Positions 18,001 through 60,000 are shown, counted from the first letter of the stretch. The stretch is 64,000 bases of DNA from Escherichia coli (GCF_024700885.2 NZ_CP117016.1); one strand, 5' to 3'. Numbers: made by a program.

Positions 18001-21000
18001 TTTCCCTGAGTGAGGGAATCATTCAGCTTTCGTTCCTGAAAAACACACATTTATTTGTTATTTAAGGAGTTATCTCATGAAAACCGTTTCTCAGAATACC
18101 CCCACAATTTATTCAGCTACAACACCAGAGAATAATCCGCCTCAGTTGGTTGCCAGCCTCGTCCCTGATGAACAGCGCATCAGCTTCTGGCCGCAGCATT
18201 TTGGCCTCATTCCACAGTGGGTGACCCTGGAGCCCCGTGTCTTCGGCTGGATGGACCGTCTGTGCGAAGACTACTGCGGTGGTATCTGGAATCTGTACAC
18301 CCTGAACAACGGCGGGGCATTTATGGCACCCGAACCGGATGACGATGATGACGAAACATGGGTACTGTTCAATGCCATGAACGGTAACCGCGCAGAAATG
18401 AGCCCGGAAGCCGCCGGTATTGCCGCCTGTCTGATGACGTACAGTCATCATGCCTGTCGTACGGAGAATTATGCCATGACGGTCCATTATTACCGGTTGC
18501 GGGATTACGCCCTGCAGCATCCGGAATGCAGCGCCATTATGCGCATCATCGACTGAATGGAGAGAAGCACAATGCAACAACTTTCCTTTCTGCCCGGAGA
18601 GATGACGCCCGGCGAGCGCAGCCTCATTCAACGGGCCCTGAAAACCCTGGACCGCCATCTTCATGAACCCGGCGTGGCCTTCACCTCCACCCGTGCGGCA
18701 CGGGAATGGCTGATTCTGAACATGGCGGGACTGGAGCGTGAAGAGTTCCGGGTGCTGTATCTGAATAACCAGAATCAGCTGATTGCCGGTGAAACCCTCT
18801 TCACCGGCACCATCAACCGCACGGAAGTCCATCCCCGGGAAGTGATTAAACGCGCCCTGTACCACAATGCCGCTGCCGTGGTACTGGCACACAATCACCC
18901 GTCCGGTGAAGTCACACCCAGTAAGGCAGACCGGCTTATCACCGAACGTCTGGTACAGGCACTGGGCCTGGTGGATATCCGGGTGCCGGACCATCTGATA
19001 GTCGGTGGCAACCAGGTTTTCTCCTTTGCCGAACATGGTCTGCTTTAACCCTTCACAACCACATCACACCTGTTTTCACTTTTATCTTCTGTCTTCAGAG
19101 GTATCCCATTATGAAAATTATCACCCGTGGTGAAGCCATGCGTATTCACCAACAACATCCGACATCCCGTCTTTTTCCGTTCTGTACCGGTAAATACCGC
19201 TGGCACGGCAGTGCTGAAGCGTATACCGGTCGTGAAGTGCAGGATATTCCCGGTGTGCTGGCCGTGTTTGCTGAACGCCGTAAGGACAGTTTTGGTCCGT
19301 ATGTCCGGCTGATGAGCGTCACCCTGAACTGAGTGGGAATTCTGATGAGCAGAATTATCGCCACTACCGGACCATTCTTAGCCGATTTTCTGTAAGGATT
19401 TTATCGTGTCAGACACACTCCCCGGGACAACACTTCCCGACGACAATCACGACCGCCCCTGGTGGGGGCTGCCCTGCACCGTGACGCCCTGTTTCGGGGC
19501 ACGTCTGGTGCAGGAGGGTAACCGGTTGCATTACCTTGCCGACCGCGCCGGTATCAGAGGCCTGTTCAGCGATGCAGATGCGTACCACCTGGACCAGGCC
19601 TTTCCGCTGCTGATGAAACAACTGGAACTCATGCTCACCAGCGGTGAACTGAATCCCCGCCATCAGCATACCGTCACGCTGTATGCAAAAGGGCTGACCT
19701 GCAAAGCCGATACCCTCAGCAGTTGTGGTTACGTTTATCTGGCTGTTTATCCGACGCCCGAAATGAAAAATTAACTCTCCAGAATAGCCTTCTGCTACGG
19801 CCTGGTGTTTTCACCACGCCACTTTTCCATTTTTATATCTGCATATCAGGAAAATCTTCAGTATGAAAACATTACCTGTATTACCCGGGCAGGCGGCCAG
19901 TTCTCGCCCGTCTCCTGTTGAAATCTGGCAGATACTGCTGTCCCGACTGCTGGACCAGCACTATGGCCTCACACTGAATGACACACCTTTTGCCGATGAA
20001 CGTGTGATTGAGCAGCATATTGAGGCAGGCATTTCACTGTGTGATGCGGTGAACTGATGCGCCGCGCGATAAATGCACTCTATCTTGTGCGATAAATGGC
20101 ATCCACGCGGCGTTTCATTATTTGAAAAAGAATTACATTTCAGGTTGCGTTATGACAGTCCCAACAGGGTGATAGCGGTAGATCGTTGACAGTCCAATAT
20201 CATAGATAATTGCCAGCCGCTTTCTGTCATACCCTTTCTGGAGCAATCTTGCGATCTGCTCATGCTGCTCCTTCGTCAGTTTCGGGCGACGTCCTCCAAC
20301 TCTTCCTTGTGCTCGCGCAGCAGCCAGTCCAGCCAGCGTGCGCTCAACTATCAGTTCACGCTCCATTTCTGCCAGTGCACCCATCATATGAAAAAAGAAC
20401 CTTCCCATCGGAGTGCTGGTATCGATTGAATCCGTCAGACTGCGAAAATTGACACCTTTTGCGCGTAGCTCTTCTGTGAGAGCAATGAGGTGTTTCATTC
20501 TTCTACCCAACCGATCCAGCTTCCAGACCACCAATGTATCCCCTCTTTTAAGGCACTTTAAAGCGCGTTTCAGGCCTGGTCGTTCCGACTTGGTTCCGCT
20601 CATTTTGTCCTCAAAAATCTGTTCACATCCTGCGCACATTAATGCATTGCGTTGCAAATCTGTGTTTTGGTCATTTGTTGACACACGTATGTAGCCAATC
20701 AGCATTAAAAATACTCCCTTTTGAGTGGTTAAAGTACTGAGATAATGTGGGGAGGATTTGAGAGATAAACGTTGGTTTGGGGGAAGGCTCGGCGCTGCCC
20801 GTTGGTGTACCTGTTCCGTGGCCCACTGCCACACCGCCAGCAGGCTGGTTAAAGTGCGACGGGCGCGCCTTTACAAAAGAACAATATCCTGTTCTGGCCA
20901 GAGTCTACCCGACCCTCCGTCTTCCCGATTTGCGCGGTGAGTTTATCCGTGGATGGGACGACGGGCGAAAAGTGGATACAGGGCGCGATCTGCTTTCACG

Positions 21001-57000: not shown

Positions 57001-60000
57001 AAAAAAGAGTAATATCTGCAATCAGGCTGGCGCGAGTTCTGTTTTTTTTCGGGCCGGTCTGATTTTCACATACTGTAAGGTTATTGCATATTCCTCCTAG
57101 TCTCTTCCCATTTTGACCCAGTTCTTCCCATAAATATCTCACTTATTCCCTGTCATTTATCTCAAGTCTAATCAGTGAACTTTCTCGTGGAAAAATACGC
57201 GCTGGTGCGTACCGACCAGCCGGGATTCAGCGCCTGTACCCGCTCTCAGTTAATAAACAGCATCGATATCCTCCGGGCTCGCAGGGCGACCGGCCTGATG
57301 ACCCGCGACAATTACAGAACGGTAAATAACATTACCCTGGGTAAGTATCCGGAGGCGAAATGATGACACTGGAAGCCGACAGCGTTAACGTACAGGCGCT
57401 GGATATGGGGCACATTGTCGTTGACATTGATGGTGTTAATATCACTGAACTGATTAATAAGGCCGCTGAAAACGGTTATTCACTCCGCGTGGTGGATGAC
57501 CGTGACTCTACCGAAACACCGGCAACTTATGCCAGCCCTCACCAGTTGCTGTAAGACAATGCAGTGATACAGGGTATAGTGCCATTAACCACAGAAACAG
57601 CACTGTTGTCCTGTATTAAGCAGGCAAGAGAAGATGTCCTTACCCTGCGCCATCTGCAGCTTCTGAACCAGAACCGGTGAATCTCACTCAACAGGCTTCA
57701 TTTCTCCTGACGCCAGCCTGAATACAGCTGGCGTTTTCATTTATAAACAGAAAGGAAAACCGATAATAATGGAATGGACGCCCCGACCATGAAGCAACGG
57801 TAGGATATTACTGATAAACCTTCCAGTGGAGGTGCGTTATGGCCGTTTTAACGATTAGCATTGACCTGACAAAAAATGAATTCCAAATCCACGGTCTGGG
57901 TAGGAACAGAAAAATCTAAGCTCAGAAAACGGATTAAAGTAAGCGTCAACGGAGCACCGTATTGACGCTTATTTATTGGTGAGAACTACGTTCCATGGCA
58001 GGAGTTCGTCAACACGGTTGGAGGGCCATTCCGGCAGTATGCTCAGAATATGGCGCAGATACGCTTCCGGATCGATACCGTTCAGACGGCAGGTGCCTGC
58101 TTTTCTGGCAACAAGCAGGAATCTCAGCGCTGAAGCAGGAATTAGAGGTAAAAACGCCCTACCGGGCCATGAATCACCCGGTCATTGGAGTAGTAACCAA
58201 AGCAGATTTAGCCAGCATGGAACAAATATCTTTGGTGAAAAGTTGGTTACGGGAAGCTGGAGCGCACAACGTGTTAGTAACCAGTGCAGTTAATAACAAT
58301 GGAGTTACAGAACTTTTTGCCTTGCTGCATACAGAAGAAGGTTGTTGTTAATTTCGATTGGTTCTCGGATGAGAATGATGACGGTGATACACAGATAAGA
58401 ATCAATGAGCAATGAGGGTTGCCGGGCAACCCTCATTGAATAAAACGGGAATTACTTCGCTTCGCCGTTTTTCATTTCGCCCATAGCTTTCAGCTTTTTG
58501 GAGATATCGCGGCGTTCTTTGGAGAGCTCGGCATTTTTGATGATGTAATCGTCAACGCGATCTTCATAGTCACCTTTCATGCTGGCGATGATGCCCTGGA
58601 TTGCTTCAACGCTCATCCCCGGCTTGATGTAATCGCTCAGGTTGTCCAGCAGCAGGACGCGCTTCTGGTTGTCACGGATCTTTTTCTCAACGTCCTGAAT
58701 TTCACGTTGCAGTTTGTTCTTACGACGGAACAGACGAACAAATTCCAGTACGTCCTGGAATGAAGGCTTGGTAGTTTCCATTTTTATACCCCTGATAATG
58801 TGAGAGTCGGATTCGTTTAAGCAACCGCTATTCGTTAGGGCCAACATTACTCATAGCTGCCGCAGATGACAATGCTTTTATCCCTTTTCACTATCATACC
58901 CTTTATCCTTGCTGAATCGAAGCAGCAGCAAGATGATTCTGAAGTTCAGGAATTATTTGCGCAAGGCCCGGCAAATCAGATTCGATAGCAACTCAAGCTG
59001 ATGCGCCGTTTCCATGTTCAGCCACACATAACCATAGATTGGTGTTTCCACAACCTTCAGGTCATGGTGGTTATTGAGCAACTGACGCAGCTCTTCCACA
59101 GCATCGTTCAATTTTTCCGTATTGGCAAAAACCGGCTGCGGATTACCTTCGTACAGCGCATGAACAAGGCTCAGCAGTATTTGCTGCATCATGTGCTGGG
59201 TATCACGAAGTTTTTGCGCGTTCAATAACACGAAATGGCTGGGGCGCGTGGCCCAGTATGCATTGATTTGCAACTCCAGCATACAAACCAGATTGCGGTT
59301 AATGGTCTGGATACCTTCATATATCGATTTTGGAATACGGGTTTCTTTGCTGGCGGGCGCAATCAGTCCACGCATTTTCACGGCATCGGTCAGGAGTTTT
59401 TGTAGATGGCTTTCCAGACGTGGGCGTTCGAGTAAGTTCGGTGAGAATGCAGATTGATAGACCCGATTATACTCGGTCAGACTTTTCGCCAGTTGAATGC
59501 GCCAGTGGATGAACGCCCGTTGTGGCCAGATACCGGTAAACAACATTGCCAGTAAAGAGCCGAGGATCACATCGCCGCTTCGCCATAACGCCGTATCAAT
59601 TTCACCTGTCGGGGAACCCACAACAATTGCCAGCGTCACCCCAATCAATAAACCTTGATACGGTTTCTTGCCCAGCGCCAGCCAACCGCAAAGGAACATG
59701 GCCGCCGCGCACCAGACTAACATCAGCGGTAACGAGATTAACTCCAGTTGCAGAGCGATAAGACCTAAAATCGAACCCAACACCGTACCGCCAATACGCT
59801 CAAAGGCGCGAGGGACAACGTTACCCCAGAACGAGATTGGCCCCATAATCACCACCATGGTGACCAGCGGCCAGGTGCTTTCCGGGATAGTAAACAGGCG
59901 GATAATGAGAAAAGTGAGCAGGAATGCCAGCGCGACCCGAGTACCATGCACAATGCGGTAATGGCGGTATACCCGGATTTCAAACGGGCTTAATGACTTA

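Follow-up and report, generated by a model that had tools for sequence, protein, structure and literature searches.

A 64,000-nucleotide stretch of Escherichia coli DNA (GCF_024700885.2, NZ_CP117016.1; called the window here) carries a prophage that a first-pass annotation, made from the sequence, had described as a complete-looking Mu-like transposable element. The locus raises three questions. Where precisely does the element begin and end, to which lineage of transposable phages does it belong, and is it still a functional phage? Judged by its sequence, it is a transposable prophage of the BcepMu type, as distinct from Mu, D108, and the genus Muvirus; it belongs to the BcepMu family without being a close relative of BcepMu itself. 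We estimate a probability of roughly 0.93 that the element is a temperate myovirus of this type, which integrates and replicates by DDE transposition. The integration part of this reading is documented by true ends, a 6-bp staggered signature, many target sites, and the family of the transposase and ATPase.

Termini, target duplication, and insertion in cbtA

A direct check of the sequence placed the 5' terminus, TGATGCGCC, at 20055 and the 3' terminus, TCTAATCA, with its last base at 57174. These are the TG...CA ends that the first-pass annotation had proposed, and its size of about 37.1 kb also held, but its span of 20049-57180 took in both flanking copies of GTGAAC. Ends of the TG...CA type are characteristic of BcepMu relatives (PMC2628397). 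The window presents the element as the reverse complement of the BcepMu convention, with the Mor/early end at 57174 and the tail-fibre/invertase end at 20055.

20055..57174, no strand: whole BcepMu-type transposable prophage, 37,120 bp, 5'-TG...CA-3'
20049..20054, no strand: left copy of the 6-bp target-site duplication GTGAAC (cbtA codons Val-Asn; single copy in the empty site)
57175..57180, no strand: right copy of the 6-bp target-site duplication GTGAAC
19863..20054, plus strand: 5' part of the cbtA (yeeV) toxin gene; 3' part at 57175-57363; PGAP flags both as partial cbtA
20066..20097, plus strand: two putative transposase-binding repeats GCGATAAAT (20066-20074 and 20089-20097), aligning with the BcepMu right end
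57132..57163, minus strand: two putative transposase-binding repeats, GAGATATTT (57132-57140) and GAGATAAAT (57155-57163), aligning with the BcepMu left end

Removal of 20055-57180 restored an uninterrupted cbtA open reading frame (ORF) of 124 amino acids (aa), and the insertion point falls at codons 63-64 of this gene, in a CP4-44-like island. In E. coli genomes, annotated cbtA (yeeV) with cbeA and yeeW on its two sides was 100% identical to the rebuilt 674-bp empty site, and 2,815 records matched it at 99% identity or more; the empty-site mapping suggested by the first-pass annotation thus led back to an intact gene. Among 5,426 complete E. coli genomes, only that of strain MLI114, from Mali, had the occupied cbtA junction. 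The cbeA antitoxin gene (19406-19774), just upstream of the split cbtA, remains intact and is therefore an orphan antitoxin in the island, a curiosity specific to this strain.

Could the junctions be an artefact of assembly? The window differs from the RefSeq record of MLI114 (NZ_CP117013.1) by a tail-fibre inversion (21208-22815) and by 26 mismatches and 2 gaps over 36.6 kb, which might be taken to favour this explanation. Identical junctions and an identical duplication occur in that independent record, however, a perfect cbtA gene results when the flanks are joined, and the inversion is bounded by the crossover sites of an invertase and is thus biological, so we regard an artefact as vanishingly improbable. 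The differences between the two records point to another version of the assembly or to a mixed culture.

With GTGAAC on both sides, the first-pass annotation had left the target duplication at 5 or 6 bp, depending on how the ends are assigned. We judged its length on nine other copies and the window, which together represent seven different chromosomal sites. At all seven, exact 6-bp duplications of unrelated sequence stood beside identical TG...CA ends; the copy in EC958 (ST131) and the other genome copies agree with the window copy in both respects.

cbtA, duplication GTGAAC: window / MLI114
otsB|araH, duplication CCATTT: TUM1857, EcPF7, FCI23
ddpB|ddpC, duplication GGTGGT: SCU-313
ylbE|fdrA, duplication AACTGG: TUM14759
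aroA|ycaL, duplication GAAGAA: EC958 (ST131)
ecpC, duplication TCTTCG: 097H6
ppiC|rep, duplication CTTGAA: JMK_KBN3987

These sites settle the duplication length at 6 bp, not 5. A 7-bp duplication could be drawn at cbtA, where the T at 20055 also matches the empty-site base that follows GTGAAC, but was rejected, as the other six sites fix both the 6-bp length and the TG end. The target duplication of Mu is 5 bp, and the 6-bp length therefore sets the element apart from Mu. A literature search for the duplication length of BcepMu returned irrelevant papers only, the original BcepMu paper not being among the sources covered. A firm 6-bp rule and exact ends would allow insertions of this common E. 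coli prophage to be mapped automatically.

The same sites bear on whether the element is instead a P2-like or other integrase-dependent prophage that entered at a specific att site, with GTGAAC as the att core. Such a prophage could account for the P2-like tail genes and for a short direct repeat at the borders, but it is refuted by the variety of insertion sites, where seven positions carry seven unrelated 6-bp repeats, and retains practically no probability. Consistently, no tRNA gene occurs in the window, and no tyrosine or large serine integrase was found in the element, whose sole recombinase is a 190-aa serine invertase at 20133-20705; the first-pass annotation had rightly reported that a tyrosine integrase is missing.

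The ends also carry short repeats. As the first-pass annotation had noted, a motif sits in inverted orientation 13 bp inside each terminus: GATAAATG begins 13 bases inside the left terminus, at 20068, and its reverse complement (57154-57161) ends 13 bases inside the right one. Of the extra copies reported further in, the one at 20091 stands, whereas exact copies at 27565 and 30384, together with one at 5394, were dismissed because their number is about the chance level. The consensus GMGATAWWT matches five times in the window against 2.35 expected, and four of the five occupy positions 12-20 and 35-43 counted from each terminus, inverted between the ends. Over their last 50 bp the ends can be aligned with those of BcepMu, and both repeats fall at matching offsets. 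This layout, shared with BcepMu, is not a product of chance.

Kinship with BcepMu and PhiKM

In the element, early genes lie on the plus strand and run toward 57174, late genes lie on the minus strand and run toward 20055, and the genes follow one another as genes 1-52 of BcepMu do. The early operon and the adjoining repressor candidate comprise the following.

48411..57012, plus strand: early operon, transcribed toward the 57174 end
48411-48599, plus strand: Ner-like protein of the BcepMu gp16 family (TIGR04111 match above cut-off)
48646-48960, plus strand: HTH protein
48971-49891, plus strand: DUF3102 protein
50224-51993, plus strand: rve DDE transposase, 589 aa, Pfam rve as the sole domain
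52004-53170, plus strand: AAA_22/ExeA-type ATPase, MuB analogue (AAA_22 domain; PGAP 'ExeA family protein')
53470-54000, plus strand: Gam
54571-54867, plus strand: MazG-like protein
56202-56651, plus strand: GemA-like protein
56623-57012, plus strand: Mor-family activator
47961..48317, minus strand: candidate HTH repressor (XRE/DicA-type), transcribed divergently from the early operon

The first-pass annotation had recommended comparing the transposase, the B protein, and the structural proteins with those of known phages, and this comparison found homologues in BcepMu. By tblastn, the transposase shares 67.8% identity with its BcepMu counterpart (gp09), and a second full-length comparison gave 66%; the ATPase encoded directly downstream is 59% identical to BcepMu gp08. 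In all, 35 of 51 BcepMu (NC_005882) proteins have colinear homologues in the element, at 31-76% identity. Five marks of a BcepMu-like phage are present, namely the rve transposase, the ExeA-like ATPase, the inverted early operon, TG...CA ends with terminal repeats, and a Mu-like head combined with a P2-like tail; an SLT lysis cassette is shared as well. Another mark of the family is host DNA of varying sequence at the ends of packaged genomes, for which the analysis covered the variety of chromosomal sites only. In contrast to BcepMu, which has an acyltransferase at its genome end and no invertase, the element has a Gin-type invertase and three fibre cassettes, and it also carries another repressor, other accessory genes, and a Dam methylase.

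Several features could nevertheless suggest that the element belongs to the Mu/D108 lineage (Muvirus), with MuA/MuB chemistry and a 5-bp duplication. Like Mu, it combines a DDE transposase and an AAA+ partner with Gam, GemA-like and Mor-like regulators, Mu-like head genes, and TG...CA ends, and it carries, at the genome end, an invertible tail-fibre segment and an invertase 77% identical to Mu Gin. The transposition proteins are dissimilar, however. BLASTP detected no similarity between the transposase and MuA (E=0.48) or between the ATPase and MuB (E=2.4), a tblastn search with the transposase against 50,697 phage records did not match Mu, although Mu is in the collection, and rve is the transposase's only Pfam domain. 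Moreover, all seven sites have 6-bp duplications, the tail is of the P2 type, a Dam methylase stands in place of Mom, and the early operon is inverted and runs outward to the end of the element. None of the traits that mark a Muvirus (MuA/MuB-type proteins, a 5-bp duplication, and a left-end repressor with an inward early operon colinear with the late genes) was found. At the level of sequence the Muvirus assignment is already refuted, and we give it only the slightest chance. The "Mu-like" of the first-pass annotation thus survives as far as transposability and true termini are concerned, and the region should be labelled a BcepMu-type (PhiKM-like) transposable prophage disrupting cbtA rather than a relative of Mu.

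Other searches with the transposition proteins reached further afield. The nearest NCBIfam families of the transposase are IS481 and IS21, a PDB sequence search with the transposase and ATPase gave no informative relative, and the transposase is ~56% identical to TnpA of phage B3. Phages of the B3 group are siphoviruses, and their structural module is of another kind. B3-like phages have an early operon inverted relative to that of Mu, and their transposition proteins differ from those of Mu (PMC5977238). The nucleotide match between the Pseudomonas phage B3 group and the element is only 101 bp, in gam.

How close is the element to named phages? The BcepMu family includes SalMu, PhotoMu, and ChromoMu, according to the passage of PMC3417384 that cites Summer et al. 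2004. The closest match is Escherichia phage PhiKM (PQ738613.1), from a uropathogenic strain, which is 99.5% identical to window positions 45000-57174, has the same gene order, and encodes a transposase 100% identical to that of the element; its record is partial, without the invertase end. Phi06_2974 B and Klebsiella phage KP12 are more distant relatives. With BcepMu, blastn gives an aligned fraction of 0.29 at an identity of 0.68, and thus a product of 0.20. For a genus, the ICTV guideline is about 70% genome-wide nucleotide identity. By this strict standard of identity to BcepMu, the element falls outside Bcepmuvirus, where the NCBI still files PhiKM.

The element is also widespread. A 61-nt tail-region marker was found in 588 of 5,426 complete E. 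coli genomes (about a tenth), including a copy in the ST131 strain EC958, and hundreds of complete genomes share the left 1.5 kb of the element at no less than ~99.8% identity, 385 of them over at least 80% of its length. Bcepmuvirus prophages have been listed in work on ST131 and in work on induced prophages of the gut. Compared with PhiKM and the copies in E. coli genomes, the element differs in its cbtA site, in the lengths of repeats in the tape-measure and fibre genes, in its inversion state, and in an amber mutation and a frameshift. It is a common and already catalogued type of E. coli prophage, and its only particular features here are the insertion in cbtA, which is specific to this strain, and the two point lesions. 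Its significance beyond correct annotation is small, with a three-state fibre switch driven by a Gin-type invertase documented along the way.

A Gin-type invertase drives a three-way tail-fibre switch

The left end of the element holds an invertase gene and an adjacent segment bounded by crossover sites.

20133..20705, minus strand: serine DNA invertase of the Gin/Cin/Pin family (190 aa), sharing 77% identity with Mu Gin (E=4e-110); PGAP 'recombinase family protein'
20767..22820, no strand: invertible tail-fibre segment, roughly 2 kb, bounded by gix-like crossover sites
20767-20778 (A) and 21206-21217 (B): gix-like sites AAACGTTGGTTT
22809-22820, minus strand: active gix-like site TTACCTTGGTTT
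20777-21205, plus strand: silent fibre C-terminal cassette A, promoterless
21216-21677, plus strand: silent fibre C-terminal cassette B, promoterless
21684-22298, minus strand: tail-fibre assembly gene
22298 to about 22808, minus strand: currently expressed C-terminal part, Sv
22298..23971, minus strand: tail-fibre gene with a P2 gpH-like N-terminus and a 168-bp tandem repeat (4.5 copies) at 22985-23737

A 229-nt homologous block heads cassette A, cassette B, and the expressed gene, with a gix-like core at the start of each block, and the three crossover sites share a core of the AAAC(G/C)TTGGTTT type. By itself, the 12-mer crossover motif is not enriched across the window (4 found against 2.2 expected). 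All three inversion states were present among ten copies of the element.

Sv joined to the constant fibre part: window and five others
Cassette B joined to the constant fibre part: RefSeq MLI114 and FCI23
Cassette A joined to the constant fibre part: EcPF7 and JMK_KBN3987

The locus therefore has three parts of a Din-type switch: an invertase orthologous to Gin, inverted sites at the junction of constant and variable fibre sequence, and alternative orientations. Because the window and the RefSeq record of MLI114 differ by an inversion at the crossover sites, the switch is active in this strain. Mu has two S/U pairs, whereas the element has three fibre cassettes and a single assembly gene. That gene lies antisense to the fibre gene, and hence to late transcription, in the A-joined and B-joined states, so it is possible that cassettes A and B function without the sole assembly gene.

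Completeness, life cycle, and remaining modules

Is the element still a working phage? Completeness was assessed gene by gene against the fully intact copy in SCU-313, and 52 of 54 genes proved to be full length in the window copy. The description "complete-looking" thus holds apart from two genes, both of which PGAP calls pseudogenes in the same strain.

31714..32049, minus strand: gpE-like tail-assembly chaperone gene, with a CAG-to-TAG amber change at codon 91 of 111 (31777-31779)
32147..32429, minus strand: short ORF (93 aa, function unknown), put out of frame by an additional G in a G-run

In the reading that we favour, the rve-family transposase and the AAA+ ATPase would act on the two short repeats at each TG...CA end and join the phage to target cuts staggered by 6 bp, leaving the 6-bp duplication. 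By homology with BcepMu and Mu, the XRE-type repressor (47961-48317) would silence the divergent early operon. Upon induction, this operon would yield the Ner-like regulator, transposase, ATPase, Gam, and lastly the Mor-type activator, which in turn would switch on the oppositely oriented late operon for lysis, the Mu-like head, and the P2-like contractile tail; homologous phages likewise suggest headful packaging from integrated copies, with host DNA at the ends. The Gin-type invertase flips the ~2-kb segment among three crossover sites and so joins the constant fibre part to one of three C-terminal cassettes, an exchange that may vary the host range.

Several points weigh against this account. 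First, the steps of induction, replicative transposition, and packaging are predicted from homology. Second, the transposase-binding role of the terminal repeats is deduced from position, conservation, and consensus, as are the promoter and the assignment of repressor and operator. Between the repressor gene and the early operon lie a promoter-like site (48335-48363, plus strand) and a 17-nt inverted repeat (48303-48319 / 48350-48366) at the level of consensus, and scans for promoters, terminators, and operators gave hints of that level only. Third, the amber codon and the frameshift together may leave this copy unable to build tails.

The third point can be carried further, to the view that the element is a defective, immobile remnant with intact ends, in which the amber codon of the chaperone gene and the frameshift in the small ORF would prevent the formation of infectious particles. 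Both genes carry pseudogene flags in the same strain, and the amber allele is rare among genomes positive for the tail-region marker (5 of 588) and hence derived. In P2, an E' extension of gpE is read in the -1 frame; here, the reading frame of a GpE-family E' extension ORF (31632-31889, minus strand) is +1 with respect to the gpE-like gene. A G5 run just before the normal gpE stop is a possible +1 slip site, and this most obvious site for a shift into E' is downstream of the amber codon, as would be expected if the lesion were disabling. The five amber-bearing genomes, however, have the element at three different insertion sites (cbtA, otsB|araH, and ppiC|rep), which argues that an amber-bearing phage stayed mobile and integrated anew after it gained the mutation. 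The truncated product would have 90 aa, close to the 91 aa of P2 gpE, the other 52 genes are intact, and the invertase is demonstrably active in this strain. We therefore consider a defective remnant unlikely, though it has more in its favour than the other alternatives to a BcepMu-type temperate phage. The 93-aa ORF is intact in FCI23, an amber-bearing copy. A tentative suggestion, which we hold with considerable doubt, is that the amber-bearing sublineage is still infectious, either because the gpE+E' shift occurs upstream of codon 91 or because the phage can do without the fusion and the last 20 residues of gpE.

The first-pass annotation had described a transposition module with full Mu-type head and contractile-tail genes. 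All of these modules are present; the head does resemble that of Mu, whereas the tail genes are of the P2 type.

23968..34380, minus strand: contractile tail and baseplate genes of the P2 type (gpI, J, W, V, D, X, U, tape measure, gpE-like chaperone, tube, sheath)
28866-31556, minus strand: tape measure
32432-32953, minus strand: tube
32953-34380, minus strand: sheath
34370..43075, minus strand: Mu-like head and packaging module, including adaptor proteins
35881-36834, minus strand: major capsid
36849-37964, minus strand: protease/scaffold
38179-38637, minus strand: Mu G-like protein
38640-39461, minus strand: Mu F-like protein
39442-40938, minus strand: DUF935 portal
40938-42533, minus strand: large terminase
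42530-43075, minus strand: small terminase (DUF3486)
43075..45436, minus strand: lysis cassette and two small late genes
43075-43386, minus strand: gp26-like
43386-43712, minus strand: membrane/lipoprotein
43709-44359, minus strand: spanin
44343-45083, minus strand: SLT transglycosylase
45089-45436, minus strand: holin
45567..47844, no strand: accessory region, with a Dam-family adenine methylase gene plus three ORFs without an assigned function
45567-46295 (plus strand), 46271-46675 (minus strand), and 46674-46889 (plus strand): accessory ORFs of unknown function (242, 134, and 71 aa)
47080-47844, plus strand: Dam-family adenine methylase (TIGR00571 above cut-off)

Assignments in the tail module come from PGAP names, PHROGs, and colinear tblastn matches to BcepMu gp39-gp51 at 31-76% identity, and its gene types are those of P2 (FI, FII, E, T, U, X, D, V, W, J, I, H). 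The head module was assigned from PHROGs and homologues of BcepMu gp27-gp38, and the PhiKM annotation notes Mup27-31 and Mup36 for head genes. The tape-measure gene shows an in-frame difference of 261 bp (~29467-29758), giving 896 aa in the window against 983 aa in the SCU-313 copy, and the copy number of the 168-bp (56-aa) tail-fibre repeat (22985-23737) varies between copies of the element. These two differences account for element sizes of 36,782-37,345 bp.

Mu-type com/mom modification genes are missing from the element, which carries the Dam-family methylase instead. The three accessory ORFs (45567-46889), between the lysis genes and Dam, matched PHROGs families of unknown function only and gave no credible defence-system match in PADLOC; they may be morons or exclusion genes.

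Outside the element, the island DNA contains Ag43, yeeS/T-like genes, cbeA, and cbtA and adjoins yeeA-sbmC-dacD-sbcB. The RefSeq record of MLI114 flags the Ag43 autotransporter gene as frameshifted and the IS110-family and ISL3-family transposases as pseudogenes; when these annotations were mapped onto window coordinates, they fell at ~10479-13597, 1520-2488, and <640, respectively.

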